Shown: positions 27,426 through 48,510 of the stretch, in pieces
Position numbering within the stretch: position 1 is the first letter of the stretch
How the letters are laid out: every line of letters begins with the position of its first letter
Source: Candidatus Omnitrophota bacterium
GTDB taxonomy: Bacteria; Omnitrophota; Gorgyraeia; Zapsychrales; Zapsychraceae
Direction of reading: 5' to 3'
Length of the DNA stretch: 64,000 nucleotides
NCBI GenBank assembly: GCA_015233195.1
Contig: JADFYE010000002.1
Location: 26,184 to 90,183 of the forward strand
Notes under the pieces: generated by a model
What the model saw: the letters and a program-made list of their open reading frames with translations, nothing else
Databases searched by the model: none
Told to the model about the DNA's origin: nothing
Program-made: the position numbers and the translations under genes

Positions 27426-27466
27426 AAAAATAAAAATTTATATTAATGGTTTTTAGAAATCTAATC

Positions 27467-27729: not shown

Positions 27730-27743
27730 TTCTGCATCAAAAA

Positions 27744-29470: not shown

Positions 29471-29911
29471 TTAAAAGGCTTTAACTTCTACCTGACCAAT
29501 CATATTCGTCCAAAACGGAGATTTATATTCAATTCGCTTCATGTTTCCTTCTTTCAACATCATTTTAAGCTTTATTGGTCGACCATAATCATACAGAGAA
29601 CGCGAGGCTATTTTCTTATCATCACCAACATCATCCTTCTTAACATCCTCACCAATTGAAGTAATCTTTACCGTATGCCAACCAGGTTTAACCATAACCC
29701 TAATAACACTCATTGCATCAACCGTAAATTCTTGTTCATCCACTATTATACGATGCCCGATAACTTCAGTCTGACCTAAAAACCTGCTACAATCAAACAC
29801 CAATCCAGTATTATCAGAATTAGTTCCCATTCGCATCGGCTCGTACAGACGAGCAGTTGAAGAACATCCCATCAAACCAAAAACCAAAAACAATAAAAAT
29901 ATTTTTCGCAT
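29471..29911 (-). CDS. Lipoprotein, unknown function (last gene of the T4SS array)
   Basis: Lipobox LVFGLMGC with start at ATG 29911 (MRKIFLLFLVFGLMGCSS). The track's 14-codon 5' extension is unlikely. Confidence 0.6.
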   Translation of the reverse strand: MRKIFLLFLVFGLMGCSSTARLYEPMRMGTNSDNTGLVFDCSRFLGQTEVIGHRIIVDEQEFTVDAMSVIRVMVKPGWHTVKITSIGEDVKKDDVGDDKKIASRSLYDYGRPIKLKMMLKEGNMKRIEYKSPFWTNMIGQVEVKAF

Positions 29912-29972
29912 ATCCGGCTCCCTTGTCCTGTAAAATATCATAACATAAACCACTCAACCCTAACGTCGAATT

Positions 29973-30452
29973 TTAAAAAATTTTCTGCATTACAAAATCA
30001 ACTTCAACCACCCCAAAATACCGGCTATCCCAACTGCGCGGATTATAATCAGACATCATCCAATATTGCCCCTGCCCCAAAACCAACCTCTCCGAATAAA
30101 ACAAATCCAATCGCCTGCCTTTTGAATCCACCTGTTCAATACTCAAACCCTCCACAACCTTTCCATTAATAAATATTTTTCGGTCTCGGCGTTCAACCAC
30201 ATCACCCGGCACGGCATAAACTTTTTTCATTAACCAAACATCCGACTTAATATACCCACGCGCTTGCGCATATTTATTAATAACCGGATCCAATCTAAAT
30301 GCGGCATAATCACCAAGACCCGGAACTTTATTAGACCGTTGATAAATACCAATCGGTAAACTATTCGATAAGCAGCTAAAATAATAACCATTGTAATGAA
30401 ACCAGCAAAATCCAATCAACACTATCACACTAAACAAAAATAATTTTTTCAT
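29973..30452 (-). CDS. traF: Conjugative-transfer signal peptidase TraF (S26 family, pilin maturation/cyclisation type)
   Basis: 159 aa with an N-terminal TM, Ser motif NSLPIG, Lys motif MKKVYAVPGDVV, and C-terminal SWDSRYFG, as in RP4 TraF / TraF-type S26 peptidases. Confidence 0.8.
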   Translation of the reverse strand: MKKLFLFSVIVLIGFCWFHYNGYYFSCLSNSLPIGIYQRSNKVPGLGDYAAFRLDPVINKYAQARGYIKSDVWLMKKVYAVPGDVVERRDRKIFINGKVVEGLSIEQVDSKGRRLDLFYSERLVLGQGQYWMMSDYNPRSWDSRYFGVVEVDFVMQKIF

Positions 30453-30458
30453 ACAAAA

Positions 30459-31013
30459 TCATTTCTGATGAAACCCAATTTTATTTTTTGGTTTTTCCGG
30501 ATGGCCAAACAAACGTTTCAATGCTGCAAATACAACATGAAACTGCTTATCATATTTTTTCTCCATCGATTCAATTTTCTCTCTCAATTCTTTATGCGTA
30601 TACATCATTTGCCGGAGCTTAGTAAAAGTCCGCATGATCGAAATATTAACCTGAATAGCCCGATCACTCTTTAAGACGCTGGATAACATAGCAACACCTT
30701 GTTCAGTAAAAACATATGGAAAATAACGGCTTCCTCCATGCTCTAAATTTGAGGTCACATTTTGTGACCTCAAGTTTACTAACCCTAATCTTGAGGTCGC
30801 AATTTGCGACCTCAAGTTTGCCGCTTCCTCAAAACTCAATTCAAACATAAAATCTATAGGAAACCGTTTAATATTTCTTTTAACCTGCTCTTTCAATCTT
30901 TTCGTCTCAACTCCATACAACATAGCCAAATCAGAATCCAACATTACTTTCTGCCCCCTGATCACATAGATCATGTTTTCAATAACATCAATTTCAACAT
31001 TATTAGTCTTCAT
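30459..31013 (-). CDS. ORF6N-domain (KilA-N superfamily) DNA-binding protein
   Basis: 184 aa with [43 protein letters not shown], then a duplicated NLRSQxxTS segment, then [38 protein letters not shown]. Confidence 0.75.
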
Positions 31014-31981
31014 ACGCCTCTCACATTTTCCAAAACATACTCCCCGCTTTTCTTATCAAAACCCTTCACCTCCAAAATCTCATCCACCAACCTACCTGCT
31101 GCATTTTTATTCGCACGAACAATATTCACCACCACATTAATCGCCTCAGCAATCGTTTCAGGTACAGGCGACACATTAGCTTCCAATATCAACTGCTCCA
31201 ACCGCATTAAAGCCCGGATGGCATTATTCGCATGAATAGTAGATAAACCTCCTGGATGCCCAGTATTCAAAGCTTTAATCAAAGTATGCGCTTCTTTCCC
31301 TCTTACTTCTCCGACAATAATCCGATCCGGACGCAACCGCATACAATAACGCAAAAGATCATCCATATTGCGATTATCTGAAGTTTTAAGCGTAATTTTA
31401 TTTTTAACATTACACTGTAATTCCAACGTATCCTCAATAACCGCTATCCTGTCTTCCGGAAAAATTTTGGCTACCTGATCTAAAACTGCATTACATAAAG
31501 TAGTTTTCCCACTTCCAGTTGAACCAGCAACTAAAATTGATTTTCGACTCTTTACTGCTTTTACCAGCTGATCATATTGTTCAGAAGTAATTACTTTTTG
31601 TTCCAAATATTCATCTAACGTAATCACCCGTTTTGCGGGTTTACGAATTGAGAATACTGGGCAGGAAACTAACGGAGGTATTAACGCCTGAAATCTGCAC
31701 AACTGTGAACTATTTTCCAACTGAAACCGTATTTCTGAAGATAAATTAGGACTATCTTTATTTATTTCAATGTCATTAACACTTGCAATGGTATTTATAA
31801 AATTACGAGCTTTTTCCGGAGACAAATTACAATATTGTTTCATCCCATTATATGTATCTACCCATACCTGCGAATCTTCATTCAGCATAATCTCAATAAC
31901 TTGTGGATCACTAATCGCCCCGAAAATCTCTTCACCTAATTCATACCGGATCTTTTCATATATCCGCTGATGCTGAATCAT
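31010..31981 (-). CDS. virB11: Type IV secretion ATPase VirB11/TrbB
   Basis: 323 aa with Walker [22 protein letters not shown], and His box [12 protein letters not shown]. Confidence 0.9.
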
Positions 31982-31994
31982 TGTATTTTCCTCA

Positions 31995-33218
31995 TTACGA
32001 ATTGGGGTATGGTTCCAATACCATATCTTTCATGACCATAACTTTAGTTTTCATTCCCGGACGGATCGCAATAGTCGGGGGAATATTAATATTTTTTTGG
32101 GTTTGCTGACTGAAAGTATCACCTAACCGCTGACCAACATTTTTTGCAACTACGTCTTGAGCTGTATTTACTGATGATACCTCTTCATTAGTATCTTTAG
32201 TAGGATCTAAAAATTCATACGCCGAGCCTACTAAACTCATTAACAAAGCATTTCCATATATTTTCAAATAATGATTATTAACCTTATCTTTTAAACCTGC
32301 ATAACCGCTGACGTCAACTCCCTGCATCCGGTCTAAATTTATCGTCGAACCATCCGGGAATTGTAATCTTATCCACACCACCAATACTCTATTCTGACCA
32401 TAAGCTAACTCATTATTATAAGTACCAATTAATCTACAGCCTTGAGGTATCAACAAATAATTTCCAGTTACAGTGTCATAAACATTTTCAGTGACTAACG
32501 CAACAATATCCCCCGGAAGATCAGAATTTATTCCAGTCAACATCGCGATCGGAATAATAGATCCCGCCTTGATCTCATATTCTGACAACGGTTTTTGTTT
32601 AAGATACGGTAAATAATCGCCTTTAACACCCAAACCTTTTAAAAAACTGCAATTATTATTTTGTTTATTTCCGTCAACAGATAAGCCGGACACGTCCCTG
32701 GTTTCAATTATTTTTTGTTCACCTGCCCCTCGATTAATATTTGGCACAAAATCCTGAGGCTTTTTAATTTCAATATTCATACCTGACCGAGCCGCCAATA
32801 CTGCTGCAGTTTCAAAATCTACAATCTCCTGGGTTTTTAATTTTTTTACTTTAGCCTTATTAGCATATTCTTCCGCCTTTAACGCTTTGTGCATCTTTAT
32901 CTCTTCTTCAGATAAAATCCGAGCAGCAACTTCTGTTGATTTTCGATTTTTATGTAAATTTTCCGCCAACTTATTCTTATTTATCTCCGCACTTTTAAAC
33001 CACGCCTCCTGATTTAAATTGGAAACTGCTACATTTGCTACCGGCTGTGCAGAAGAAGTTTTCTGAGCCTCAGCTTTATTACGCTGTGAATCTCCCTTGA
33101 ATATCAAATACAGCATTAATCCAGCAAACACTGCAAAAAAAATCACCAAAGGCATTTTTCCATAAGCATCAACTTTTATATCGGACAAACTAAATAATAT
33201 TTTTGATTTATCTTTCAT
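31995..33218 (-). CDS. virB10: Type IV secretion protein VirB10/TrbI
   Basis: 407 aa with an N-terminal TM, a low-complexity linker, and a C-terminal TrbI domain (IPQGCRLIGTYNNELAYGQNRVLVVW.RLQFPDGSTINL..GVDVSGYAGL). Confidence 0.9.
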   Translation of the reverse strand: MKDKSKILFSLSDIKVDAYGKMPLVIFFAVFAGLMLYLIFKGDSQRNKAEAQKTSSAQPVANVAVSNLNQEAWFKSAEINKNKLAENLHKNRKSTEVAARILSEEEIKMHKALKAEEYANKAKVKKLKTQEIVDFETAAVLAARSGMNIEIKKPQDFVPNINRGAGEQKIIETRDVSGLSVDGNKQNNNCSFLKGLGVKGDYLPYLKQKPLSEYEIKAGSIIPIAMLTGINSDLPGDIVALVTENVYDTVTGNYLLIPQGCRLIGTYNNELAYGQNRVLVVWIRLQFPDGSTINLDRMQGVDVSGYAGLKDKVNNHYLKIYGNALLMSLVGSAYEFLDPTKDTNEEVSSVNTAQDVVAKNVGQRLGDTFSQQTQKNINIPPTIAIRPGMKTKVMVMKDMVLEPYPNS

Positions 33219-34161
33219 ATGTTTTCCTAAAAATTTTTACAATTTTTTGTTTATCCGCGTTTAAAATTAATTCACCGTCGTTAAAAAGTTTATCTACAAT
33301 AAAAAATGGTTCACGATATCGATAATTAACCATATCTTTCGCTCCTTTAGCAGTCACAGCCACAAATACTGGTAATTCCATATTTTTAACTTTATCACTC
33401 ATTTTGATATACACTTTTCGCCCATCATCAAATACCATTGCCGGAAACCACGGCAACCGCTTGTCACCTTGAACTTTGTAATCAAAATTCATTTGTTCAA
33501 CTTTTAAACTGCTTGAATGAATATCATCTTTAGCATCACTTTCAGCCTTTACTACTCCAACATTAGGCTGCGGGTAATAAAAACTTATTCTGGGAGTGTA
33601 TTCTCCCTCGTCAATTGATTTGAGTTGTATGTCATAGATCCGTTTGTTCGTAACGATCACTAAATTGGTTTCCATATTATTCCCAAAAAACGGCTTTACT
33701 GTAATGATCGGACGCGATCCCTCATTAGATACTTGATATGAAATTTTATATGACCACCGTTCAGTATCTCCAGGTGAGGCATCTAATATTTCTTCTCCTT
33801 CTGCCAATTCGATCACACATGCCCTTAATTTTCCGCATATCAATTTCGGCTGAGCCATTCCATAAGGAAATTTAACTACATTATCTGGAGTAACTATAGT
33901 GTCGACTTGCGCGTCTTTTTCGATCTCATTTTCAGGAGCACGAATATACGCGCCATTATCCAACTTCATTTTTATAGGTTTGGTTTCAACGATCACATCT
34001 TCAAATTTCACATCATCGTTCAAAAACGCAACCGGAACAACTTTAGCCTGTGTTGAGTTAGCCATAAATTGATCTACCATAAAACCATGATTAACTGTTG
34101 TTTCAGCGTAAACCACTTCACATATTAATAAAAAACTCAATCCCAATATTATTCTCTTCAT
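33208..34161 (-). CDS. virB9: Type IV secretion protein VirB9/TrbG
   Basis: 317 aa with a signal peptide. Position and length fit VirB9/CagX-type beta-rich proteins (WSYKISY.., YDIQLKS.., PVFVAV..). Confidence 0.8.
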   Translation of the reverse strand: MKRIILGLSFLLICEVVYAETTVNHGFMVDQFMANSTQAKVVPVAFLNDDVKFEDVIVETKPIKMKLDNGAYIRAPENEIEKDAQVDTIVTPDNVVKFPYGMAQPKLICGKLRACVIELAEGEEILDASPGDTERWSYKISYQVSNEGSRPIITVKPFFGNNMETNLVIVTNKRIYDIQLKSIDEGEYTPRISFYYPQPNVGVVKAESDAKDDIHSSSLKVEQMNFDYKVQGDKRLPWFPAMVFDDGRKVYIKMSDKVKNMELPVFVAVTAKGAKDMVNYRYREPFFIVDKLFNDGELILNADKQKIVKIFRKTYER

Positions 34162-34820
34162 ATTTTCTCCTTAGATGTTGCGTCAATCTGCGACCAGGAT
34201 AACCTATTTACATATATTCCGAATGGATTCAGCGGATATTTTTCTAATATACTTGCATCTTTAGGCGGAATGACCGCTACTTCAAACCAGGCTTGCCATT
34301 GTTCTTCTTTCACAATCTTCCCCGAAAGATCCCGTGCAACTTCTTTCCATTCCATTAAAAATGAACGATCTGACTGCTTTAGAAATGACGACGGTATAAT
34401 TTGTAAAGTTCGCTCCTGCGCGATCTTAAATGGGTCATGCGCGCTATAATAACCATTCAAAAAATTATTCTGCACATTTATTCCTGAAACACTATATACC
34501 TCTGAAAAATTTTTTTTCATAACCAGATCATCAGTTATCACAGAACGAGCGAGATCAATGTACCGATATAAAAATGCCCGAATCACAGTTTCATCCACAA
34601 TATTTGAAGATTGTAATTTATCCACAAATTGCGCCCGACCTAAATGATCTACTTCGACGATATACGGTATTACTTGCGCCTTATTAATTAAAATATAATT
34701 ATTAACGCCTAACAACAAGACCACTAAAATTAACGATCCCGACACAATTTGCCAATTACGTTTAGCAATCACCGGCTCAGCAAATTGCTCCAACCATTCC
34801 TGTTTAACTTGTTTATACAT
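34158..34820 (-). CDS. virB8: Type IV secretion protein VirB8/TrbF
   Basis: 220 aa, bitopic (TM IVSGSLILVVLLLGV) with a periplasmic NTF2-like region. Syntenic between VirB6 and VirB9. Confidence 0.8.
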   Translation of the reverse strand: MYKQVKQEWLEQFAEPVIAKRNWQIVSGSLILVVLLLGVNNYILINKAQVIPYIVEVDHLGRAQFVDKLQSSNIVDETVIRAFLYRYIDLARSVITDDLVMKKNFSEVYSVSGINVQNNFLNGYYSAHDPFKIAQERTLQIIPSSFLKQSDRSFLMEWKEVARDLSGKIVKEEQWQAWFEVAVIPPKDASILEKYPLNPFGIYVNRLSWSQIDATSKEKI

Positions 34821-34832
34821 AAACTTTCCTTG

Positions 34833-35900
34833 TTATTGTTCAACCCCAAATAGTGTATTAACAGATTTAACCTGCCCTGATGCTGCTGAAGAAACAGCTT
34901 CTACCGTATTATGAGTATGTCTTGCCTCAATAACAGAGTTGTTATTAAGCGCTGAATTTGTTCTCAATTCACCCTGAACCAGACCCGGTTCATGGGGCAC
35001 ACCCTGAACCCAACGTGGTTCAGGGCCTTTCCCTGTAAAAACCAATCCATTACCCAACAACTCAACTGCCATTTTCGGCACATGTATCGACATATAATAA
35101 AAGATCAATGACCCTGCGCTTATAAATACCCCGTCACGAAATAACGTCTGATAAGTACTATTGCCTAATCTGGTCACCCAACTGCTGGTTATAAAATCGC
35201 CCGCATTAATAATGATCACTAAAAATAAAAACCTGATACCAATATTTACTGCAGCATTCAAATAACGTTCTGCATACTTAATAGTTACTGGATGACCAGC
35301 AAAACCCAATAAAAATGTACCTCCTGCCAAAATAATGTTTCCACCGATAATTATCAGCATCATTTCAATTCCCACCCTGACAAAAACATAAAAAACCAAG
35401 CACCCAAATATTATTAATAGCATTGAAAGCGCGCTTTGATTAAACCAGGGACCATTCGACCCTTTCATAAAAATATAAGAGAACAATTCCATACCCCTTC
35501 CAATAATATGTCCGGGTTTTAATGCCAAACGCGAACCTTGCTCATTATTTCCCGATGAAACTGTCGTTACTACCTGACTGCTGCTTTGAGTTTGCACCAT
35601 CCGCTGTGCTACAAAATTAAATGAATTTTTAAGCGGCATAAACCATGTGTCATATTGCGCAACCAGCCAATAAAACAAAAAAATAAAAAATACTTTTTTG
35701 ATCAACTCACCCATGATTCCAGCCATATCTTCTTTATGCAGCATCCACAAAATCCCGCTCCAGATGAAATTCAATAAAGCCAAAATACCGAATATTTTTA
35801 TACCAATCCCAATACCAACAGAACCTAACTGGTCTGCTAACCCGCCATAATGACTGATGATCTCTTCAATACCTGAAAATATTTCAACATCCGGATTCAT
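34833..35900 (-). CDS. virB6: Type IV secretion protein VirB6/TrbL
   Basis: 355 aa polytopic membrane protein with a hydrophilic C-terminal tail, in the syntenic position. Confidence 0.75.
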   Translation of the reverse strand: MNPDVEIFSGIEEIISHYGGLADQLGSVGIGIGIKIFGILALLNFIWSGILWMLHKEDMAGIMGELIKKVFFIFLFYWLVAQYDTWFMPLKNSFNFVAQRMVQTQSSSQVVTTVSSGNNEQGSRLALKPGHIIGRGMELFSYIFMKGSNGPWFNQSALSMLLIIFGCLVFYVFVRVGIEMMLIIIGGNIILAGGTFLLGFAGHPVTIKYAERYLNAAVNIGIRFLFLVIIINAGDFITSSWVTRLGNSTYQTLFRDGVFISAGSLIFYYMSIHVPKMAVELLGNGLVFTGKGPEPRWVQGVPHEPGLVQGELRTNSALNNNSVIEARHTHNTVEAVSSAASGQVKSVNTLFGVEQ

Positions 35901-35902
35901 AA

Positions 35903-36616
35903 TTAATATCCCGCGTGATTTTGTTCATTTTTAAGTAAATAAACTGACTGTTTGGTACTGGCTTCAATCGCCGCGTCCTTCTGCATTTGTGATGCCATAT
36001 ATGCATTTTGAGATTGAATTTGCAGCATCATTAATTGACGTAATTTTTGGATTTGCGTTGCTAATTCCAGTTGAATACGATTGCTAACCTGTAAAGCCTG
36101 AGTCTGCCCAACCGCGCTATCAGAACGGTCTTTCCACTTCCGTAAATAATCCTTCTCGACCGAAAACTCTTCTTTCTGGGTTTTTGCAGCATCCAAAGAC
36201 GCATAAAAAGAATCCATTGTTGCCTCAGTCCATTTTTCATACTCACTTTGAAAATCTTCTGATGGCTTATACCCTGGAAAACGTTCTTTAAATTTTTTAT
36301 CAAGCTGCAACATTGAATAAGAAATGGCTTTGCCCTGGTGAGCTTGTTCATTTAAAATTTTCAGTTCTTCAGTTGCGTCGTGATACGCGATATTTCCTGC
36401 AGGCTTAACACTCTTAAGCAACTCATTTAATTTTGTATTTATCGCAGTCTCTTCGAAGAAAATTTTACCGAGCTCCACATTAGTTTGTCCCTGAAGTTCT
36501 GCATTCACAGCATCTATTACCGCAAATTGAGCATTAGCATTTTCATAAAAAATTATTTGGGTATTTAATATCACAATCATCACACTGCAGACTTTTATCG
36601 TAAGTATTTTTCCCAT
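35903..36616 (-). CDS. virB5: Type IV secretion protein VirB5/TrbJ
   Basis: 237 aa with a signal peptide, a helical protein body, and a TrbJ-like C-terminal stretch GQTQALQVSNRIQLELATQIQKLRQLMMLQ. Confidence 0.75.
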   Translation of the reverse strand: MGKILTIKVCSVMIVILNTQIIFYENANAQFAVIDAVNAELQGQTNVELGKIFFEETAINTKLNELLKSVKPAGNIAYHDATEELKILNEQAHQGKAISYSMLQLDKKFKERFPGYKPSEDFQSEYEKWTEATMDSFYASLDAAKTQKEEFSVEKDYLRKWKDRSDSAVGQTQALQVSNRIQLELATQIQKLRQLMMLQIQSQNAYMASQMQKDAAIEASTKQSVYLLKNEQNHAGY

Positions 36617-39290: not shown

Positions 39291-39292
39291 AG

Positions 39293-39607: not shown

Positions 39608-39655
39608 TATTCCCTCCATGTTTATTGAAATTAATAACTTTTAGAACATAAAATT

Positions 39656-40853: not shown

Positions 40854-41256
40854 AGGTAAAGTTATCCGTTGAATTTAATAAACCGTTTTCTAATTTTTGT
40901 CTGGTACTATTTGAAACCTTCGTTAAAGAAAATTCATATTTTTCAGTGTCCGAGCTATCAACATTTACAGTCAGATCACCGCCGAATTGATTTGCTTTAG
41001 TTGAATCGAAATTATTTTTCAAATATCCGTCGGTTTTCAACGCGGCAACTGATATACCCGCGTATGTCATTTTGTCGCCATACCACTGCACGGCTGCAGA
41101 ATGTAAAATTTTAATATTTTGAATCTGCTGCACAGCTTTACTATTCTCAATCGCCCGATTAGCACTGATCACCCCGCCGGCTATTACTGCAATAATAATG
41201 ATCACCATAACCAACTCCACCATAGTAAACCCACCTTTGTTTCTAATTTTTCTCAT
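40816..41256 (-). CDS. Prepilin-type pilin (candidate major subunit)
   Basis: 146 aa with leader MRKIRNKGG|FTMVELVMVIIIIAVIAGG. It is the first pilin gene after the platform gene. Confidence 0.8.
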   Translation of the reverse strand: MRKIRNKGGFTMVELVMVIIIIAVIAGGVISANRAIENSKAVQQIQNIKILHSAAVQWYGDKMTYAGISVAALKTDGYLKNNFDSTKANQFGGDLTVNVDSSDTEKYEFSLTKVSNSTRQKLENGLLNSTDNFTYDANTQTWTATF

Positions 41257-41288
41257 CGCTTTTCCTTTCTTTATCCTTTTACCTTTTA

Positions 41289-42485
41289 TTAAAACATGTT
41301 TTCCATCATCCCATTCAAATTCGTATATATTGGCACAATGAATGTACTTACCAAAAAAATTATCATACCTCCTGCTACGACAATAAAAACCGGCTGTAGC
41401 ATAGGTATCAAATTACGCGCTGAATCCTCAGTCCTATTCTTAAAATACAAATATATATTCCTGAAATACTCATCATATTTTCCCTGAATCTCTCCCTGAT
41501 GAATATTTTGGTGTACTATCCGTGGTATCTCTTTTTCCTTCTTAACTGCTTCCCAAAAACACAAACCCTGGTCAATACCTTTTCGACATCGCAAAAATAT
41601 GCGGCTGATATAACTGTTTTGTACGTTATTAATTGAAAGTATTGATTCTTTGATAGTGATCCCGCTTTTTTGGTAGGTATACAAATTCAAAAAATATAAC
41701 GATAATTGCATCTCTTTGATAAATGATCCCAAAACTGGAACCTTATATAAATACTTTAAAAATTGTTCTTCATAATGCCGCCGGCAATACACCAAAATCA
41801 TAAATAAAATTATTGGAACCAGCAAAAATAAATACCAATGATACTGAACCAGATCACAATAAAATAAAAACATTTTTACTGACCAGCTTTTCATTGATGC
41901 TTCCGGTAAAAAATCCCGTAAAGCTGGTACTAACTTGAGTGATATAATTAGCGCTGCTCCTGAAATTAAAACTATTAACCCAATCGGATACGCTATAGCA
42001 GCGCCAACTCGTTTTTGTACCTCATCTGAAAATGCAAAAGTCTCAGCCAAAGATCGCAAGACCTCAGGTAAATTGCCGCTTTGTTCGCCTGCAGCTATAC
42101 AACATATTGCAGTAGACGGGAAAGCTGTAGTACGATCCATTGCTTCCCACAAAGGATACCCTTTATTCAAATCCTGCCGCATGTTGCGCAACGCAGTTTT
42201 CACCCTTATTGAATTAGTGGTATCCTCTAAATTTTCGATAATTTCATTCATCGATAAGCCTACCTGCAGCATGCCCGCGAAATTATTCAATAAATCTGCC
42301 AACGTTTTATGATCGATTTGTCGTATACTCATTTGCTCTCTAACATGTAACAAAAAATTTGGACGCATAGAAATCAATGTCCAATGCCGCCCACTTATCA
42401 TTTCCTTAATCTCTTTTATTGAACCCTGCCCTATACCGGTTGTTTGTGTTCCAAAATTATTTAACACCACATATTCCCAATACAT
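41289..42485 (-). CDS. Type II secretion / type IV pilus platform protein (GspF/PilC family)
   Basis: 398 aa with two GspF-type repeats, three TM regions, and the typical size. Confidence 0.85.
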   Translation of the reverse strand: MYWEYVVLNNFGTQTTGIGQGSIKEIKEMISGRHWTLISMRPNFLLHVREQMSIRQIDHKTLADLLNNFAGMLQVGLSMNEIIENLEDTTNSIRVKTALRNMRQDLNKGYPLWEAMDRTTAFPSTAICCIAAGEQSGNLPEVLRSLAETFAFSDEVQKRVGAAIAYPIGLIVLISGAALIISLKLVPALRDFLPEASMKSWSVKMFLFYCDLVQYHWYLFLLVPIILFMILVYCRRHYEEQFLKYLYKVPVLGSFIKEMQLSLYFLNLYTYQKSGITIKESILSINNVQNSYISRIFLRCRKGIDQGLCFWEAVKKEKEIPRIVHQNIHQGEIQGKYDEYFRNIYLYFKNRTEDSARNLIPMLQPVFIVVAGGMIIFLVSTFIVPIYTNLNGMMENMF

Positions 42486-42495
42486 AATGTTGTCC

Positions 42496-44133
42496 TTATC
42501 CTAAGACTCTTACTATTTCGTCTAAAGACGTTTCTCCACGTAAAAATAATTCTTTAGCATCTATAAAAATATCTTTATGATCAGAGCGGTTTTTTAATAG
42601 TTGACGCATTGCATGCAAATCTTTAGTCTCCATTAAATCGCGGATCTCATCATCTACAGTTAATACTTCAGCGACTACAGTTCGACCATTATATCCATTG
42701 ATACATTTACTGCATCCAACTGCAGTGAACGCTTCAGTGATTTTGGCATTTAGATATTTTGTTTGCGCAGCATCACACGCATCCCGATTAAAAATAATTT
42801 TCGTTTTACATAATGGACATAATTTGCGGATTAGACGTTGAGCAACTACTCCGACTAAACTATTTGAAATATTAACCACATCCACACCCAGGTCTTTTAG
42901 CCGCAATACGCTTCCTACAACATCATTAGTATGCAGCGTAGAAAAGACCTGATGTCCGGTCTCTGCGGCACGGAACGCTTCCTGCGCGGTTTCTGTATCC
43001 CGTACTTCACCGACCAAGATCACATCCGGGTCATGACGCAGAAAAGCGCGTACCGCCGACGCAAACGTCAGGTTTTGAGCTTGATTAACCTGGGTCTGCA
43101 TCATTAAAGATTGTGGCATTTCAACTGGATTCTCGACTGTAACAATTTTCTTTTCCGGAGATTTAAGATGATTGAGTAAGCTATATAAAGTGGTAGATTT
43201 ACCGCTGCCAGTAGGTCCAGTTACCAAAACAATACCGTAGGGTCGCTTAATCAAAGACTGAATCTTTTGCCAATTATGCGATGAATAACCTAAACTCTTG
43301 AGATCATATGATACCTTTGCCCGATCCAAAATCCTTAAAACTATCGACGGTCCAAATACTGAAGGTATGATCGAAACCCGAATGTCTACTGCCCGGTCAA
43401 AATATTTGAATTTAAAGCCCCCGTCTTTAATTTTAAAATATTCTCCAGTATTTAATTCACATAACGTTAATATTCGATTTACAATCGTATATATAAAATA
43501 TTTCCGCAAACAACAAAATGAAGACTTCATCCCGTCTACTCGAAAACTGATTTCTAACGCTTTTTCTGAAGGTTCAAAGTGCACATCTGTACAATGTTGA
43601 ATTACTGCTAAATTGATCAACTCATCCAAAAACCCGGATACACCTTCAACATGTTTTTTCTCATTAATCTGCCGGCTATGCTCCTTTACTTTTGTACTCA
43701 ATTCTTCCTGCATCAAATTTTCAAGAGCAAACCGCACGTCTTTTTCTATACCGACCATAAACTCAATGTTAATAAACGGGAAATGATCTCCGATAACATC
43801 AGTTATTTCCAAATCATCAATATGTGCGACTACAAACGTCTTACCTCCATTTTGCGTCTTTAAAGGAAATACTTGATGTTTAACTAACAAACTTAGATCT
43901 AAAATATTTAATATCTCTCTATCCGGAACATAAGCGCCTTTAAAAAATTTCCACCCAACCTGTTCTGCCACAACAGCGCCAATCTCATCATCCGTTACAA
44001 AATTAAAATGTCGTAAAATCACCCCCAATTTTTCATTCTGCCCAATACTTTGGATATCCAGACACAAACTCAATTCCTGAGCTGTTATTTCCTGATGGTT
44101 TATTAAGATCTCACCTAATTTATTTTTATTCAT
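42496..44133 (-). CDS. Type II/IV secretion ATPase (GspE/PilB family) with N-terminal T2SSE_N/MshEN-like domain
   Basis: 545 aa with Walker A GPTGSGKSTT, Asp box, Walker B ILVGEVRD, His box, and a tetracysteine CPLC..CSKC. Confidence 0.92.
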   Translation of the reverse strand: MNKNKLGEILINHQEITAQELSLCLDIQSIGQNEKLGVILRHFNFVTDDEIGAVVAEQVGWKFFKGAYVPDREILNILDLSLLVKHQVFPLKTQNGGKTFVVAHIDDLEITDVIGDHFPFINIEFMVGIEKDVRFALENLMQEELSTKVKEHSRQINEKKHVEGVSGFLDELINLAVIQHCTDVHFEPSEKALEISFRVDGMKSSFCCLRKYFIYTIVNRILTLCELNTGEYFKIKDGGFKFKYFDRAVDIRVSIIPSVFGPSIVLRILDRAKVSYDLKSLGYSSHNWQKIQSLIKRPYGIVLVTGPTGSGKSTTLYSLLNHLKSPEKKIVTVENPVEMPQSLMMQTQVNQAQNLTFASAVRAFLRHDPDVILVGEVRDTETAQEAFRAAETGHQVFSTLHTNDVVGSVLRLKDLGVDVVNISNSLVGVVAQRLIRKLCPLCKTKIIFNRDACDAAQTKYLNAKITEAFTAVGCSKCINGYNGRTVVAEVLTVDDEIRDLMETKDLHAMRQLLKNRSDHKDIFIDAKELFLRGETSLDEIVRVLG

Positions 44134-44135
44134 GA

Positions 44136-44717
44136 TTAATACGCCATTCCATCCACATTTAACTTTACGTTCGCGTTATCTTTCAAGCGCATTTCAACCT
44201 CGCTTGCCCCAATATTCCGTACACATACTCCTTCATAAGGACAATCCCCTTTTTTAACTGAATAATTTCTGCCATTAATAGTAACGATCGCCTCATAATC
44301 CATTTTTGACCGCGCGATATAGATAGCTTTCATTTCTGGTGTATTTGAATCCGCTGCTTTTAAAGGATCCTGTATCAATTCCCGATTTTCTTTCCGCAAT
44401 GAACCCATTTCTTTCAAAGTTTTTTCCCGCTCCAACTGCAACTTCAACTGTTCTAATTCCATATTGAGTAGCTTTATTTGCCTGTGTCGATTTTGTTCCA
44501 TTTGAATTAAAGCATTGGTTTCCTTATTCTCCTGATCCTCTTCACCTAAAAATTCTTGCTGGGTCAAAACTTTTTCTGCAGCAATTGGTTCCGTGGCTGG
44601 TGCATTAACTACTACTGATCTCGACCCAGGCAATGTTTCATTTTTAACGATCGTCTCTCCAAATGCATTACTATTTAATAACAAAACAATTAAAACTATA
44701 CGCAAAAATTTTTCCAT
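44136..44717 (-). CDS. Secreted coiled-coil protein with small C-terminal beta domain (PilP/GspC-like position)
   Basis: 193 aa with a signal peptide, a coiled coil (LNMELEQLKLQLEREK), and C-terminal IVTINGRNYSVKKGD. Assigned by position and architecture only. Confidence 0.4.
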   Translation of the reverse strand: MEKFLRIVLIVLLLNSNAFGETIVKNETLPGSRSVVVNAPATEPIAAEKVLTQQEFLGEEDQENKETNALIQMEQNRHRQIKLLNMELEQLKLQLEREKTLKEMGSLRKENRELIQDPLKAADSNTPEMKAIYIARSKMDYEAIVTINGRNYSVKKGDCPYEGVCVRNIGASEVEMRLKDNANVKLNVDGMAY

Positions 44718-44726
44718 ATTTATCTC

Positions 44727-45227
44727 CTAATTGATTCCGTACATGGCTCCATCAACTACCAAGCCGTTTTTTAACGAATGCTTAATACCTAAAATTTTTA
44801 TATCTAAATTTTTTTCCATATCACTTACAGTTTGTAACGCAAACCCCAAGTCCGCATCATTATTAACATTCGCAAAACTCAACTTAAATGGAATACTCCC
44901 TATTCCCGGCAAATCTGATTCAACCATATAAGCTTGAATATCTTGTTTATCTTTCACATTGGGAATGATTAATGTCATATTTACGTCATTAAATAGTACT
45001 AACAGGTTGCGTTGATCAACTAAACGCTTAAACGCCTTACGTAATGTTAATGGTTTGTGTTTTGTATACTTTTCCATCTGATCTATTTGTTCTTCAAGTT
45101 GATTTTTTTGTTTTTGCAAAAACTGTCGTTCTTGTTTGGCAATGTTATATTGTTTAAAAATTTGTAAACCGTCATATCCTGCCCACCACACAACCAAAAT
45201 AGTGATAACTAAAAATAAATTTTTCAT
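44727..45227 (-). CDS. Bitopic assembly protein (PilO/PilN/GspM-like)
   Basis: Start at ATG 45227 with the SD aaggag 7 nt upstream. N-terminal TM, then a coiled coil, then an alpha/beta domain. Assigned by architecture. Confidence 0.45.
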   Translation of the reverse strand: MKNLFLVITILVVWWAGYDGLQIFKQYNIAKQERQFLQKQKNQLEEQIDQMEKYTKHKPLTLRKAFKRLVDQRNLLVLFNDVNMTLIIPNVKDKQDIQAYMVESDLPGIGSIPFKLSFANVNNDADLGFALQTVSDMEKNLDIKILGIKHSLKNGLVVDGAMYGIN

Positions 45228-45275
45228 AAAAATCTCCTTAACAACCGGCACAATTTATTGTGACCCTACGCGAAA

Positions 45276-46478
45276 CTACAAATTTACTTTAATTAGCTTT
45301 CCAGGCTGTTGGTCCAAAATCACATCTTTGACCACCAGATCCTTAAATTTATTAGAAGGTAAAATTTCCTCATAAAACGCTTCTTTATCTCTTAAATTCA
45401 AAAATACCTCCAGCGAAACTCCGTTTTTTAATCGCAACATTTGTAAAGAATTAACCGCGTACTCATCTGGCACACAATTCATGAATTCAACATATACTGA
45501 TCCCCATCGTTTTTGTTCCGCTTTTAAAAAACTTCTATATGCTGTTTGATCGATTTTTTTTAACTCTTCCTTTAAAACCTGATTGGTGTTTTTCAAATCA
45601 AAACAAAAACTTTGCATTTGTGAAGTCATCATCCGTAAAAAAATATTCCCTAAAAATGCCATTAATATAACCAACCCTGCAGCACTAAATTTAACCATAA
45701 ATTTGCGAGCAGTTTCATTTTTAGCTTTTTTTACTAATACTTCAGGTGGACAATAATTAAGATTTACATTATTTTCTTTTAATCCTTCGAAAACCGGACA
45801 ATCCCATTCAAAATAGAGCACTTGTTCAGGCTCTAAATGTTCCTTTTCAATTAAATGATCAACTACCGCTTTTGAATTACTCACATAGATAAAAGCAGCA
45901 GTTAATCCACCCGAAACTCCTACCCACTGTTTTTGATAATTCTTTTCATTCCGTTTAATCTCTGCAGCCACTACTTCCATGCTTGAGACAGAAGTGATTT
46001 TGCGAGTTTTGCCTATAATCTGACCAGAAAATATAGTTATCAAAATTTCCTGATCAAAACTATCAATGAACATGACCGGCTGCTTTTCAGGCAGCGCGAT
46101 ATTTTTTAACAGCACTGACCTAAGTAAAACTCCATACGGTACGATCTTTATTTTCTTTTTCTCTCCGAACAAAGAATAAACTTCTCGAACACGATCTTGA
46201 TGAATACCCATTACCTGATAAATATTTTTACGAATTTTTTCACTTTGCAATAAATATCCCTCGCCAGCTTTTTGTTTAAAATCACCGGCGACAATAGTGT
46301 CAACCCTATCCTGGGCAGCATCTGAAACTGTGATCTGAGTAGTTTCCATTTCAACTACCGCAACTACGATTTCTTCATCGATAGAACTACCCGCATTTTT
46401 AACATTATTCTTATCGATTTCAGTAATACTTTTATCACCAAGCGCGTAAAGTTTATTATTAAGTAAATAGTAGCTCAT
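45276..46478 (-). CDS. Assembly-platform protein with GspL / PilM-PilN-fusion topology
   Basis: 400 aa: a ~250-aa cytoplasmic domain, a single TM (FSAAGLVILMAFLGNIFL), and a ~120-aa periplasmic domain. Its start overlaps the secretin stop. Confidence 0.45.
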   Translation of the reverse strand: MSYYLLNNKLYALGDKSITEIDKNNVKNAGSSIDEEIVVAVVEMETTQITVSDAAQDRVDTIVAGDFKQKAGEGYLLQSEKIRKNIYQVMGIHQDRVREVYSLFGEKKKIKIVPYGVLLRSVLLKNIALPEKQPVMFIDSFDQEILITIFSGQIIGKTRKITSVSSMEVVAAEIKRNEKNYQKQWVGVSGGLTAAFIYVSNSKAVVDHLIEKEHLEPEQVLYFEWDCPVFEGLKENNVNLNYCPPEVLVKKAKNETARKFMVKFSAAGLVILMAFLGNIFLRMMTSQMQSFCFDLKNTNQVLKEELKKIDQTAYRSFLKAEQKRWGSVYVEFMNCVPDEYAVNSLQMLRLKNGVSLEVFLNLRDKEAFYEEILPSNKFKDLVVKDVILDQQPGKLIKVNL

Positions 46479-48316
46479 TAGGTGTTCACCTCTTTGGGCG
46501 TGATGATAATAATCAATTCTTTTTTATTGTTCTGCCGTTTTTTGTATGAGAATAAATATTTAATGACCGGTATTGATCCTAAGATTGGCACTCCTTGACG
46601 TGAATCACTAACTGTGGTTGAGATCAAACCACCCAATATCAAACTTTGATTTTCTTTCACGCCCACGCTAGTAGTAATACTTTTTGAACTAATCTTTGGT
46701 ATCTGCAAAGTAACATCACCCGTTTTAATATCACTGATGCTATCTACAGTAGTCAGAGTCGCGGCAATATTTAAATATGTCTCTTTAGATTTACCGCCGA
46801 TCTTAGGAAAGATTAACATAGTCAATCCCTCATGAACTTGATTAGTCTTGACCAACGTACTTGAAACATTATCATTTAATACTTGACCATTCTCAGCAAT
46901 ATAGGAAAGGGTCTTTCCTTCCTGAATAATACTGCCAGCCATGTTTCGCGCAGTTATATGCGGACGAGATTTGACTTCAACTTTACCTATATCCTCTAAA
47001 GCTTTTAGTACCGCTGATATGCCTGATGATCCGGTACCACTGTCAGCATTAGAACCTATTCCCGTTAACTTCAATAACTGCCCGCCTACAAAACCTGACC
47101 CGGCAAAATTTGTGGCAACCGCCAGATTATTCAAACCCTTTAAATTCGCAGCCAAAGCTGTCCAATCCACTCCGCTTTCAAATTCGTTTTTTAATGTTAC
47201 TTCAACTATTTGAATTTCAAATGCTTGCTGCAAAGTCAAATTTCGATTTACCTCATCTATAAAAGCACCAACCCTATCCAATACGCCCGGAAGATCATTA
47301 ACCAACACTACTCCAGTGGTACGATTAACTGAATATGATCCGGTTTTTTCGCTGATAATAGTTTTCATATTTAATTCCAAATCATCCCACAACGACAATA
47401 ATTGAGTCTTGTTTTCCATCATAATTTTTGAACCAACATTAATACTTTGTCCGGTATTACTATTATTTTTCGACGTGGTATCACTGCTTGAAAATGATTC
47501 ATTAGAAGTTACATTATTGAAAGACTGCTCAATTGCAGGAATACTGATCTCATAAACTCGGGTTTCTTTTGACATCACAATTAAATCTTTGTTACTAATC
47601 TTAAAACCAAAAGATAATGGATATAGCAAAGATTTAAGCGCCCGCCAAATTTCAATATCTGAAACATTAATAGAAGCGCGCGCATTCTCAACATCTTTAC
47701 TCATGATAATGTTATAACCAGTTGCCTGCGCTATAGTACCCAGATAAATCTTTAACGGTAAGTTATCCCCCTTTAAAGTTATTAACTGATCCATTTCTTT
47801 AGGCAAATCTTTTTCAGTTATTTTATCCTGCGGATTTATAACTTGGTTGCTACTTTCCCCGATCTTTGTGGATCCATTACCAAGGTTCTCAATACGATTT
47901 TTATTCGCCACTAAAATATCCGGAGGATTATTATTCACAAAATCAATAACAGTATCTTGCCCGATAATTTTTTTGCCCGCATCCTCAATAAAAACTTTAG
48001 TGTGCGCATCCTTCTCATTAACCTGAAACTTTAATACATAAATCTCTCCTTTTTCACCATAAACCCTACAATCTGCTGGCTTCTCTATATATGGCACAAT
48101 AGTCAAAATATTCGGCTTATCATGCATCACGTCATAATTGCGCATATTTTCCGAACGCATTACTTTAACTATTCTTTCAGGAAAAACAATTGAGGTAAGC
48201 TTACGTGGATAAACATTAATGTTTATTTCTTCACCTTTATAATCAACATTAAGAATTGCAGCAAAACTAGATGTAGTAAAAATCAAAACAAGGATAACAA
48301 TTAAAAATTTTTTCAT
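46478..48316 (-). CDS. Outer-membrane secretin (GspD/PilQ family)
   Basis: 612 aa with a signal peptide and a C-terminal secretin domain ending SRQGVPILGSIPVIKYLF..ELIIIITPKEV. Confidence 0.88.
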   Translation of the reverse strand: MKKFLIVILVLIFTTSSFAAILNVDYKGEEININVYPRKLTSIVFPERIVKVMRSENMRNYDVMHDKPNILTIVPYIEKPADCRVYGEKGEIYVLKFQVNEKDAHTKVFIEDAGKKIIGQDTVIDFVNNNPPDILVANKNRIENLGNGSTKIGESSNQVINPQDKITEKDLPKEMDQLITLKGDNLPLKIYLGTIAQATGYNIIMSKDVENARASINVSDIEIWRALKSLLYPLSFGFKISNKDLIVMSKETRVYEISIPAIEQSFNNVTSNESFSSSDTTSKNNSNTGQSINVGSKIMMENKTQLLSLWDDLELNMKTIISEKTGSYSVNRTTGVVLVNDLPGVLDRVGAFIDEVNRNLTLQQAFEIQIVEVTLKNEFESGVDWTALAANLKGLNNLAVATNFAGSGFVGGQLLKLTGIGSNADSGTGSSGISAVLKALEDIGKVEVKSRPHITARNMAGSIIQEGKTLSYIAENGQVLNDNVSSTLVKTNQVHEGLTMLIFPKIGGKSKETYLNIAATLTTVDSISDIKTGDVTLQIPKISSKSITTSVGVKENQSLILGGLISTTVSDSRQGVPILGSIPVIKYLFSYKKRQNNKKELIIIITPKEVNT

Positions 48317-48444
48317 ACATGCCCTCTTAAGGTTTAGAAGATAAACCTAAGGGAATAACGCTTCACGAGCAGGGACTCGTTTAAAGCTATGGGGTCTTTG
48401 AAAGGGTATTTGTTTTATTTACAATTTATTTAACTGATATGCAA

Positions 48445-48473
48445 AGTATATCTGATGGATTTTTAAAATGCAA
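48445..48473 (-). promoter_or_regulatory. Sigma-70-type promoter candidate for the secretin-led array
   Basis: Minus strand reads TTGCAT, 17 nt, TATACT, about 130 nt upstream of the secretin ATG. Chance matches are likely in AT-rich DNA. Confidence 0.3.
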
Positions 48474-48510
48474 GTATTATTTTTTAACGTATATTTATTT
48501 GGAAAAATTA

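Follow-up and report, generated by a model that had tools for sequence, protein, structure and literature searches.

A chromosomal gene array of Candidatus Omnitrophota pairs type IV pilus and Trb-type secretion genes and lacks a coupling-protein gene in cis

What would a bacterium do with a type IV pilus and a conjugation-type secretion channel that are encoded in one gene array with no coupling protein (T4CP)? The question is raised by a Candidatus Omnitrophota MAG, from which we analysed a 64-kb window (the whole stretch of DNA under study, taken from a 163-kb contig of this incomplete MAG). The minus strand at 29471-48316 holds one tightly packed array of 21 genes, a pilus module followed by a Trb module. 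Pfam and NCBIfam profile searches supported nearly all gene calls and, with a table of gaps, bore out the claim of a first-pass annotation that pilus and Trb/VirB genes form one uninterrupted array. Our favoured reading, held with modest confidence and drawn from gene content, is that the array encodes a conjugation-derived mating-pair-formation (MPF) apparatus with its own pilus, chromosomal and without coupling protein, relaxase or integrase in cis, most likely serving cell contact/adhesion or T4CP-independent exchange.

The pilus module begins with the secretin gene, followed by three orphan assembly proteins, the GspE/PilB-type ATPase, the GspF platform and three prepilins with the motif G↓F/YxxxE:

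46478-48316, minus strand: secretin, 612 aa, signal peptide, no lipobox (PF00263, 5e-30)
45276-46478, minus strand: orphan assembly protein, 400 aa, N-domain in the cytoplasm, a single TM helix at about residues 262-285, C-domain in the periplasm
44727-45251, minus strand: bitopic protein, about 166-174 aa, N-terminal TM and coiled coil, PilO/GspM-like by position only
44136-44717, minus strand: exported protein, 193 aa, whose C-terminal beta domain shows the conserved motif 'EAIL-ING-NYSVK-GD-P' in the alignment; PilP/GspC-HR/GspB-like
42496-44133, minus strand: pilus extension ATPase of the GspE/PilB type (PF00437, 3e-105) with an MshEN N-domain (PF05157)
41289-42485, minus strand: inner-membrane platform protein GspF/PilC, two domains (PF00482, 2e-39)
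40816-41256, minus strand: prepilin 1, 146 aa, MRKIRNKG↓GFTMVE..., short leader (PF07963)
40368-40853, minus strand: prepilin 2, 161 aa, ...HFNHG↓FTISE (PF07963)
39656-40429, minus strand: prepilin 3, about 246-257 aa, ...NHNG↓YSLVE, large variable C-terminal domain (PF07963)

This module is a member of a small discrete lineage. The clade to which its secretin belongs is a separate one and numbers about 95 proteins, at identities of 40-49%; of the NCBIfam models, MshL came nearest with 174 bits, then the PilN type IVB family with 139 bits, neither reaching its cut-off, and the PLSDB matches were PilN-family secretins, mostly on conjugative plasmids. The 400-aa orphan protein, syntenic in all related pilus modules, had no match in Pfam, NCBIfam, PDB or PLSDB, and a set of 1.84 billion proteins contained no more than 73 representatives of it; its single-sequence AF2 model reached a pLDDT of 37. 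The bitopic protein had no family match, and its position is held by a 164-aa protein in L002 (a third MAG, described below) and in L087-L096. A profile of the 193-aa protein (seven orthologues) gave only a weak match, to GspB (4wfw, E = 0.24). The first-pass labels for these three proteins, GspL/PilMN-, PilO/GspM- and PilP/GspC-like, fit in position and topology but found no Pfam, NCBIfam or PDB support beyond that GspB match. The ATPase scored 383 bits against GspE and 367 bits against PilB (NCBIfam), with a GPTGSGKST Walker A and a CxxC...CxxC zinc motif. Prepilin 1, which is 78% identical in L001 (a second MAG), is the probable major pilin, and prepilin 2 has a ComGE- and GspG-like N-terminus. 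Prepilin 3 is a candidate tip or adhesin pilin. Its counterparts in L002, L087 and L094, and weakly in L089, contain a phage tail Collar domain, which was not detectable in the window's protein.

The second module runs TrbC-D-E-J-L-F-G-I-B and continues with an ORF6N protein, a TraF-type S26 peptidase and a lipoprotein:

39293-39607, minus strand: TrbC/VirB2 conjugative-type pilin (PF04956, 3e-16; TrbC NCBIfam matches)
38973-39290, minus strand: TrbD/VirB3 (PF05101, 5e-7)
36595-38976, minus strand: TrbE/VirB4 ATPase (PF03135; Walker A GPTGSGKST)
35903-36616, minus strand: TrbJ, VirB5-like (TIGR02780 TrbJ_Ti, 1.6e-21, 77 bits, below the cut-off of 100)
34833-35900, minus strand: TrbL/VirB6 (PF04610; TIGR02783, 104 bits)
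34158-34820, minus strand: TrbF/VirB8 (PF04335, 1e-30; TrbF, 121 bits)
33208-34161, minus strand: TrbG/VirB9 (PF03524, 2e-43; TrbG_Ti, 172 bits)
31995-33218, minus strand: TrbI/VirB10 (PF03743, 5e-61; IncP-type TrbI, 225 bits)
31010-31981, minus strand: TrbB/VirB11 ATPase (TIGR02782 TrbB_P, 364 bits, above the NCBIfam cut-off of 304.6)
30459-31013, minus strand: ORF6N-domain DNA-binding protein (PF10543, 2e-35) with a coiled-coil tail
29973-30452, minus strand: TraF-type S26 peptidase (PF10502, 2e-17; motifs SLPIGIY, KKV..PGD, SWDSRYFG)
29471-29953, minus strand: lipoprotein, probable start at 29911, lipobox LMG↓C, MRKIFLLFLVFGLMG↓C

Judged by these profile matches, the Trb set makes up a full type IV secretion channel of the P type (Trb). 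The earlier calls of VirB2, 3, 4, 5, 6, 8, 9, 10 and 11, ORF6N and TraF stand, TrbJ and TraF (TIGR02771 TraF_Ti, 91 bits, cut-off 100) lying below their NCBIfam cut-offs. TrbE shares about 42% full-length identity with TrbE of rhizobial and Ti plasmids, and an NCBI protein from an Omnitrophica MAG matches it at 100% identity. The ORF6N gene follows trbB in L001, where a second ORF6N gene is present, and in L002, and is absent from L087-L096; its product is a putative regulator specific to T4CP-less arrays. The lipoprotein had no family match and is conserved in L001 only (54%), and DNA homology with that cassette ends at the last base of its gene; a VirB7-like role for it is speculative.

Two intergenic features bear on how the array is expressed:

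39608-39655, minus strand: inter-module spacer, 48 nt, AT-rich, with the SD GGAGG before the trbC ATG at 39607
48401-48483, minus strand: putative operon promoter and conserved downstream box, TTGCAT-N17-TATACT, sigma-70-like, within the 194 intergenic nt that precede the secretin gene

The pilin 3-trbC spacing, first given as about 48 nt without a terminator hairpin, is exactly 48 nt, with no hairpin (fold z = +1.1) and no terminator-like site in it. Its DNA is not conserved relative to L001, where the two modules lie 84 nt apart; in L002 the distance is 15 nt. The statement that all junctions overlap or span at most 36 nt was wrong: with the most plausible start codons there are gaps of 48, 48 and 61 nt, the latter two separating the genes for the 400-aa and bitopic proteins (48 nt, or 24 nt with a GTG start) and traF from the lipoprotein gene (61 nt). 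The tight same-strand run extends past 29471 through two membrane-protein genes, with gaps of 17 to 41 nt. Of all the intergenic DNA, the promoter patch alone is shared with the orthologous cassette L001/L091 (76% over 83 nt). With no terminator between the modules, tight gaps and one conserved promoter upstream, the array is apparently transcribed as a single unit.

Neither T4CP, relaxase, integrase, VirB1 nor A24 peptidase was found within the 64-kb window by Pfam on every ORF of at least 90 aa and NCBIfam on unannotated ORFs. Six-frame tblastn of the window with related T4CP and integrase queries returned noise only; as a positive control, the T4CP query did detect T4CPs at 16 other loci. 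The absences listed in the first-pass annotation were thus upheld, as were its ordinary chromosomal flanks: cmoB (8.5e-118) with a cmoA-like gene on one side and polytopic membrane proteins on the other (Pfam).

The cassette and its promoter are conserved in L001, between unrelated flanks and with saturated synonymous divergence. Window and L001 differ by a pS of 0.62-0.93 (saturated) and a pN of 0.11-0.33, with all 21 genes intact. Purifying selection holds all 21 genes in two diverged genomes, which speaks for retained function. The secretin-to-traF synteny, whose conservation had been raised at first pass, is kept in this second MAG and not in the third, L002, which carries the cassette without traF and the lipoprotein gene. 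The pilus ATPase of L002 is 39% identical to the window's, no closer than those of other arrangements (L089, 52%), so a single origin of the gene order is not established. Nor is the pilus-Trb pairing obligatory, since L007, whose VirB4 is as close to the window's as that of L002 (53%), has no pilus module.

Could the array be the MPF half of an active conjugative or mobilising system, with coupling protein, relaxase and oriT provided in trans from elsewhere (outside the 64 kb or on a plasmid) and the pilus stabilising liquid mating as in R64/PAPI-1? We regard this as possible, if rather unlikely. Mobility of the cassette is suggested because its genomic contexts are unrelated in the two genomes, but no terminal repeats were found at its edges and its composition is fully ameliorated (codon usage matches that of host genes, r = 0.94 versus a baseline of 0.95). 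No Trb gene, trbC included, is disrupted, nor is traF, and selection acts on all of them; toxin-antitoxin modules lie near the array in L002 and L091, and related contigs carry a T4CP beside the same pilus (L089/L090, L096) or beside Trb genes (L087). However, T4CP genes normally adjoin MPF genes, as in 16 more distant Trb loci, and the window has no gene for a T4CP, relaxase or integrase in the 29 kb to one side of the array or the 15 kb to the other. As far as the contigs of L001 and L002 could be read, they also contained none of the three; for T4CP and integrase this covers 5 kb upstream and 2.7 kb downstream of the L001 cassette.

Across public contigs, the same pilus recurs in same-strand linkage with Trb and/or T4CP genes. 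The order is Trb, AbiE, response regulator, pilus, T4CP in L096; integrase, pilus, T4CP, TraF-type S26 peptidase in L089/L090; and Trb with T4CP, then pilus, in L087. These arrangements do not support the earlier implication that operon-level coupling has no counterpart. From this recurrent linkage the pilus is conjugation-associated, and would be the dedicated type IV pilus that goes with this Trb lineage in environmental mobile elements.

Each module is also found alone. Several Omnitrophota chromosomes hold pilus-only operons at a conserved locus, with UDP-glucose dehydrogenase upstream and DsbD downstream, and Trb cassettes of the same clade occur without a pilus (L003, L005, L007). As the closing gene of the pilus-only operons is also a TraF-type peptidase (35-39% identical to the window's TraF), the window's trb genes are nested exactly between pilin 3 and traF; either an insertion into a pilus-plus-traF operon may have placed them there, or other lineages may have lost them from such an operon. 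This would suit two independent systems sharing an operon, namely a resident Omnitrophota adhesion or DNA-uptake pilus with TraF and an inserted, T4CP-less trb cassette acting as a separate or weakly useful adhesive or secretory device. We find this improbable: the association recurs in at least three gene orders, which is hard to explain without functional coupling, the two modules have changed to the same degree between the window and L001 (ATPases and secretin at about 78-81%), and the sole conserved promoter precedes the array as a whole.

We give very little credence to the strongest reading of the first-pass annotation, a physically integrated composite with secretin and pilins as part of the T4SS conduit, forming a new machine class for DNA uptake/release or periplasmic cargo export. 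The Trb set has its own outer-membrane core, TrbG/VirB9 and TrbI/VirB10, although no recognisable VirB7 or VirB1 was found in the array. The operon-level fusion without a T4CP and the TraF-type peptidase common to pilus-only and pilus-plus-Trb operons would fit an integrated machine, whereas the existence of either module without the other, the varying inter-module gene order, and the toxin-antitoxin and regulator genes between the modules in L087 and L096 argue against it.

The favoured reading therefore stays with an MPF apparatus, probably domesticated for cell contact. Its operon would be transcribed as a unit. The GspE-type ATPase, platform and secretin would build a pilus from pilin 1, and the large third pilin, with a variable C-terminal domain, would sit at its tip. 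With this pilus the cell would capture a partner, just as R64 does in liquid mating with its PilV thin pilus; the Trb channel and the TrbC pilus, matured by TraF, would then form an envelope-to-envelope junction. IncI R64 and PAPI-1, previously cited as contrasts only, are functional analogues whose thin pili the window's pilus parallels, while the array differs from them in being Trb-type, single-operon, chromosomal and T4CP-less. Without a T4CP, canonical recruitment of cytoplasmic DNA or protein substrates would not be possible. Bartonella Trw, Helicobacter ComB and Bordetella Ptl are precedents for the use of a T4SS without a T4CP. An adhesive T4CP-less T4SS also has precedent (PMC2883598). 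Because the same pilus occurs in ordinary conjugation clusters, the array reads as a stripped-down variant of a known partnership and not as a new machine type, and its likely use in this lineage would be cell-cell contact or adhesion, or T4CP-independent exchange.

Pfam and NCBIfam searches of the window ORFs confirmed the array of pilus and Trb genes described in the first-pass annotation. Twenty-one closely spaced ORFs run on the minus strand from 48316 to 29471, with a type IV pilus module (module 1) followed by a module of Trb type IV secretion system (T4SS) genes (module 2).

Genes of the window array (minus strand; Pfam and NCBIfam assignments)
Module 1: secretin (PF00263, 5e-30)
Module 1: three proteins of 400, about 170 and 193 aa, without family match in Pfam or NCBIfam
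Module 1: GspE/PilB-type ATPase (PF00437, 3e-105), with an MshEN N-domain and a zinc-binding CxxC...CxxC motif
Module 1: GspF/PilC platform protein
Module 1: three prepilins (PF07963) with class III signal peptides (G|F/Y-x-x-x-E; motifs G|FTMVE, G|FTISE and G|YSLVE)
Module 2: TrbC/VirB2, TrbD/VirB3, TrbE/VirB4, TrbJ, TrbL/VirB6, TrbF/VirB8, TrbG/VirB9 and TrbI/VirB10
Module 2: TrbB/VirB11 ATPase (TIGR02782, 364 bits against an NCBIfam equivalog cut-off of 304.6)
End of module 2: ORF6N protein, TraF-type S26 peptidase and a lipoprotein without family

Of the filament machine, the secretin, the GspE/PilB-type extension ATPase and the GspF/PilC platform were all recognized by Pfam and NCBIfam. 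Three genes are candidates for the alignment subcomplex (PilMNOP or GspL/M/C), having the expected position and a compatible topology; their sole profile match was a weak one to GspB. On the T4SS side, VirB4 matched PF03135 and P-loop domains in Pfam and is ~42% identical over its full length to TrbE of rhizobial and Ti plasmids, a similarity on which we class the window T4SS as a P-type Trb system (mating-pair formation class MPF_T) with trbB relocated to the end. TrbC, TrbD, TrbL, TrbF, TrbG and TrbI all exceeded the Pfam gathering score, and their top NCBIfam matches were Trb models, mostly under the equivalog cut-offs. VirB1 and VirB7, which are accessory and not universal components, were not recognized: an SLT domain was absent from every part of the window, and the terminal lipoprotein matched no family in family searches.

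Taking the most plausible start codons, the junctions of the array span from a 38-nt overlap to a 61-nt gap, so the earlier statement that no gap exceeds 36 nt was slightly off. The gap between the modules is 48 nt long and AT-rich, and GGAGG precedes the ATG at 39607; neither a terminator-like site nor a stable fold (z = +1.1) was found in it. An 83-nt patch at 48401-48483, kept in a second metagenome-assembled genome (MAG; L001), contains a putative promoter, TTGCAT-N17-TATACT. Promoter and terminator consensus scans gave results at chance level, and neither in the leader nor elsewhere did Rfam detect a riboswitch or ncRNA, apart from a distant tRNA. Downstream of the array, the close same-strand run extends into two membrane-protein genes (25716-29453; 569 aa each, polytopic, weak GT87 match), which come after the cassette at spacings of 17 to 41 nt and are missing from L001. 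A second polytopic pair at 10736-15070 (706 and 687 aa, weak YfhO matches) is flanked by TPR-protein genes, and the two pairs suggest duplicated GT-C-type glycosyltransferase modules.

We ran Pfam on all window ORFs of at least 90 aa and NCBIfam on those left unannotated, and among these ORFs found no coupling protein (T4CP), relaxase, integrase, SLT/VirB1 protein or A24 peptidase. The T4CP families PF02534, PF10412 and PF12696 had no match among the ORFs of the 64-kb window, nor did any relaxase (MOB) family in Pfam or NCBIfam. Six-frame tblastn of the window with the T4CP of L089 (a contig carrying a related pilus module) and with the integrase from a related locus gave noise only; the test has power, as the same T4CP query did detect the T4CPs of 16 Trb loci that are more distant. 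The absences listed in the first-pass annotation (T4CP, relaxase, VirB1, integrase and A24 peptidase) were thus borne out within the 64 kb by Pfam and NCBIfam and, for the T4CP and integrase, also by tblastn. Peptidase_A24 had no match in any related pilus locus examined either, and the A24 prepilin peptidase may be encoded elsewhere in the genome.

The remaining window is housekeeping in character (sigma-70 factor, PPDK, class II aminoacyl-tRNA synthetase, Mla, an ABC-F protein, cmoB and a cmoA-like gene), and its other ORFs without annotation encode either polytopic membrane proteins or proteins of a polymorphic family. No direct or inverted repeats of at least 11 nt were found at the cassette borders, and the sole tRNA gene in the window lies 29 kb from the array. 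Recent horizontal acquisition of the array was rejected because its GC3 and codon usage are like those of the other window genes (r = 0.94 versus a baseline of 0.95). Elsewhere in the window, a Gp49 (HigB-like) toxin gene at 61134-61481 overlaps a 102-aa ORF without Pfam match (60845-61153), possibly its antitoxin partner; L002, a third MAG with a partial cassette, has a Gp49 and HTH pair at the corresponding place. A protein with a PEP-CTERM sorting signal is encoded at 52089-52601, and another immediately upstream of the cassette in the second MAG (L091).

That second MAG (L001/L091, JADFYJ010000004.1, also Omnitrophota) carries all 21 genes in the same order, with VirB4 79% identical, so that the secretin-to-traF synteny for which a check in related genomes had been proposed is kept along the whole array. 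DNA homology between the window and L001 covers exactly 29480 to 48326, plus the 83-nt patch. The L001 flanks are unrelated to those of the window: upstream lie genes for BrnTA, a histidine kinase and a PEP-CTERM protein, downstream one for an ammonium transporter. Between the two, pS is 0.62-0.93, meaning that synonymous sites are saturated, pN is only 0.11-0.33, and every gene is intact in both genomes; this pattern of divergence indicates that both modules are maintained by selection. L001 also has an extra 95-aa ORF6N-domain gene (9393-9680) between trbC and trbD, besides the ORF6N gene after trbB. In L002 (VirB4 52%), the pilus module is followed by trbC to trbB and ORF6N, without traF and the lipoprotein gene.

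Since the array sits among chromosomal genes yet is conserved, we lean towards reading it as a domesticated contact apparatus, with modest confidence. The version found in the window, L001 and L002 has either lost the T4CP and relaxase or keeps both elsewhere. The main rival reading takes up the second possibility: the mating-pair formation system would be active, and a T4CP and relaxase encoded outside the window would act with it in trans. We judge this unlikely.

We then placed the pilus among its relatives. Its secretin belongs to a clade of ~95 proteins with 40-49% full-length identity, below which there is a sharp drop to generic secretins; viral contigs scanned with the secretin alignment gave no match. 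The 400-aa protein (window 45276-46478) has 73 representatives among 1.84 billion proteins, with no PDB match in profile searches and no Pfam match in 51 family members. By these searches this pilus assembly protein is a true orphan; its single-sequence AF2 model was of too low quality for use (pLDDT 37). The contexts of clade members fell into three groups, the first having Trb or T4CP genes in mobile-element-like contigs.

Contigs with the related pilus module and Trb or T4CP genes
L096: on one strand, TrbJ-L-F-G-I-B, an AbiE toxin-antitoxin pair, a response regulator, the pilus module and a 631-aa T4CP
L089/L090: tyrosine integrase and HTH protein, pilus module, 748-aa T4CP, S26 peptidase
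L087: Trb genes and a T4CP (fragmented), then the pilus module

The second group is the window type, in which the pilus module is followed by trb genes without a T4CP. The third group is pilus only (L088, L092/L093 and L094/L095) and lies on Omnitrophota chromosomes between common flanks, UDP-glucose dehydrogenase upstream and DsbD downstream; here an S26 peptidase directly follows the nine pilus genes, and Trb genes are absent. The S26 peptidases of the pilus-only loci and of the window have the conjugative TraF model as their best match (76-91 bits). As the TraF-type peptidase comes directly after the pilins in the pilus-only loci, the window has its trb genes and ORF6N nested after the last pilin gene and before traF, in a slot that in L089 is filled by the T4CP. 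The pilus-only peptidases (L088 18584-19153, L092 18764-19270 and L094 19033-19545) are 67-75% identical to one another; the operons that they close occupy a conserved chromosomal locus and encode neither a TrbC pilin nor any other Trb product.

A phage-tail Collar domain is present in the large third pilin of L002, L087 and L094; elsewhere, the window included, this domain is variable or unrecognizable, a distribution that fits a role for the pilin as tip adhesin. The window also has a PilZ-domain protein and two single-domain response regulators (54414-55755, 8647-9027), and the pilus ATPase (42496-44133) has its MshEN N-domain. Response-regulator genes also lie upstream of the pilus module in L087 and L096. 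The PilZ protein, response regulators and MshEN domain hint at c-di-GMP control of the pilus.

On the Trb side, a metagenome scan with the VirB4 alignment revealed 80 Trb loci, none of which (0/80) has the pilus module. The close relatives L003, L005 and L007 are stand-alone trbC-to-trbB cassettes amid defence, toxin-antitoxin and transposase genes. In L007 (186-8712) the genes immediately upstream of the cassette (VirB4 53% identical to that of the window) encode a type I restriction fragment, an OLD/TOPRIM ATPase and UvrD helicase (Gabija-like pair), a response regulator, an HTH protein and a DUF6933/PRiA4_ORF3 protein, a context that looks like a defence island. A rough NJ tree placed the window, L001 and L002 together and the L007 and L087-type VirB4 elsewhere, while the pilus ATPase of L002 (39% identical to the window's) is not the closest, that of L089 reaching 52%. 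The varied contexts, the tree and the ATPase identities together indicate that the pilus/Trb association is recurrent, in several gene orders, and neither universal nor clearly of single origin. That the two modules would form a physically fused new machine we consider highly improbable.

No cargo gene could be convincingly linked to the array, the large proteins downstream belonging to a multi-copy family. A 1203-aa protein (22007-25618) was considered as T4SS cargo and rejected as specific evidence, as its family has more than 1300 members, several per MAG. The same N-domain is also encoded downstream of the T4SS in L002 (19976 onwards) and L005 (11638 onwards), which may be chance given the abundance of the family. 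The window has a second copy of the protein at 57673-60744, the ~330-aa N-domains of the two being 48% identical. Across Omnitrophota, members of this polymorphic family have a signal-anchor and the conserved ~330-aa N-domain, a variable middle (with a kinase-like HGDxxxxN in the 1203-aa protein) and a C-terminal 'GGIDL' tail. No Pfam match was found in the family (> 1300 homologs), and the AF2 model of the 1203-aa protein (pLDDT 75) matched no PDB fold.

Pilus-assisted conjugation is already known for MPF_I and MPF_G elements, and clustering of pil and tra genes has been described in pYR4 and R64 (PMC6232867). As in the window, a type IV pilus is co-encoded with a conjugative T4SS in R64 (IncI1; pilI-V and a Tra/Trb MPF_I T4SS) and in PAPI-1/GI-type ICEs (type IVb pilus), and the gene order is parallel: secretin, assembly proteins, ATPase, platform, pilin and large adhesin pilin. 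The C-terminal half of the window secretin matches PilN-family secretins at 27% identity (TIGR02520, 139 bits, under the cut-off of 288), and the variable C-terminal domain of the last pilin recalls R64 PilV. In contrast to R64 and PAPI-1, the window T4SS is P-type Trb (MPF_T) and not MPF_I or MPF_G, the modules share one operon instead of being separate, and the setting is chromosomal, without T4CP or relaxase. Compared with R64, the pilin leaders are short (8 to 22 residues) with F/Y at position +1, and the secretin lacks a lipobox. The array contains no PilU peptidase, PilT transglycosylase or shufflon, and neither the ATPase nor the 400-aa protein specifically resembles R64 Pil proteins or has a specific match on IncI plasmids. 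We therefore rejected close kinship to R64 Pil, there being no specific similarity beyond the secretin core; by analogy, the window pilus appears functionally parallel to the R64/PAPI-1 thin pili, yet outside the R64-type type IVb family.

The Trb module resembles the IncP-type MPF_T systems of RP4 and Ti, with TrbB, C, D, E, J, L, F, G and I all recognizable and a TraF-type pilin-maturation peptidase. The order traG-traF is that of IncP Tra1, and the T4CP-then-TraF order of L089 mirrors it. Unlike RP4/Ti, the window has trbB last and not first among the trb genes, lacks TraG (T4CP) and TraI (relaxase), nests its trb genes inside a type IV pilus operon and adds the ORF6N gene.

The clearest precedent for a domesticated apparatus is Bartonella Trw, a T4CP-less T4SS derived from the R388 conjugation system, for which adhesion via surface pilus components has been proposed (PMC2883598). 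Like Trw, the window T4SS is conjugation-derived, T4CP-less, chromosomal and retained under selection; in Trw the pilus genes have been amplified, and a type IV pilus does not accompany the system. Two further T4SSs that operate without a T4CP, the DNA-uptake system ComB of Helicobacter and Ptl of Bordetella, which exports toxin from the periplasm, offer possible functional models of how a substrate could be moved independently of a T4CP. VirB11 is lacking from ComB, Ptl is linked to its own toxin genes, and neither is known to have a co-encoded secretin or pilus.

In Omnitrophota, Tad, T4aP and T2SS-like loci (secretin, GspE, GspF, pilin) have been reported beside giant genes, with attachment or predation proposed (West-Roberts et al. 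2023; Seymour et al. 2023), and the literature searched on the phylum mentions pilus and secretion genes on mobile elements only broadly. Those Tad-/T2SS-like loci include rcpC and rotamase genes and come without mention of VirB/Trb genes, whereas the window pilus lineage is defined by the orphan 400-aa protein. A VirB/Trb-pilus operon was not described in the Omnitrophota literature that we searched.

The operon and the absence of a T4CP from the window that the first-pass annotation proposed are thus real, but the novelty it saw in coupling the two machines is overstated: the coupling has many counterparts in public sequence data, with the same pilus lineage beside Trb or T4CP genes in L087, L096 and L089/L090, and a clear functional analogue in known plasmids. 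The reading we prefer for the pilus is that it serves a family of Trb-type conjugative elements as an accessory filament for adhesion or mating. Conceivable too, though rather unlikely, is that in one Omnitrophota lineage pilus and T4CP-less Trb channel have become a single, obligately co-expressed contact machine that moves material without a T4CP. The variable tip pilin would dock a partner or prey cell, the Trb conduit would then transfer periplasmic cargo (Ptl-like) or DNA (ComB-like) free of a T4CP, and the TraF-type S26 peptidase would be a maturation enzyme common to both filaments. If true, the array would represent a new functional class of T4SS, and this in a phylum whose members are suspected to live as epibionts or predators.

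The array extends the partnership of pilus and conjugation to Trb/MPF_T systems and to an uncultured phylum. The loci form a graded series, from pilus, Trb and T4CP on mobile elements, through pilus and Trb without T4CP, to pilus and TraF only at a fixed chromosomal locus, which may record a stepwise domestication of conjugation machinery. Of most interest are the putative T4CP-independent function and the retention of a TraF-type peptidase in pilus-only operons, a hint that the enzyme family may have a new role. Omnitrophota are proposed epibionts or predators, and a conserved contact apparatus without a T4CP thus offers a concrete candidate for how they interact with other cells.
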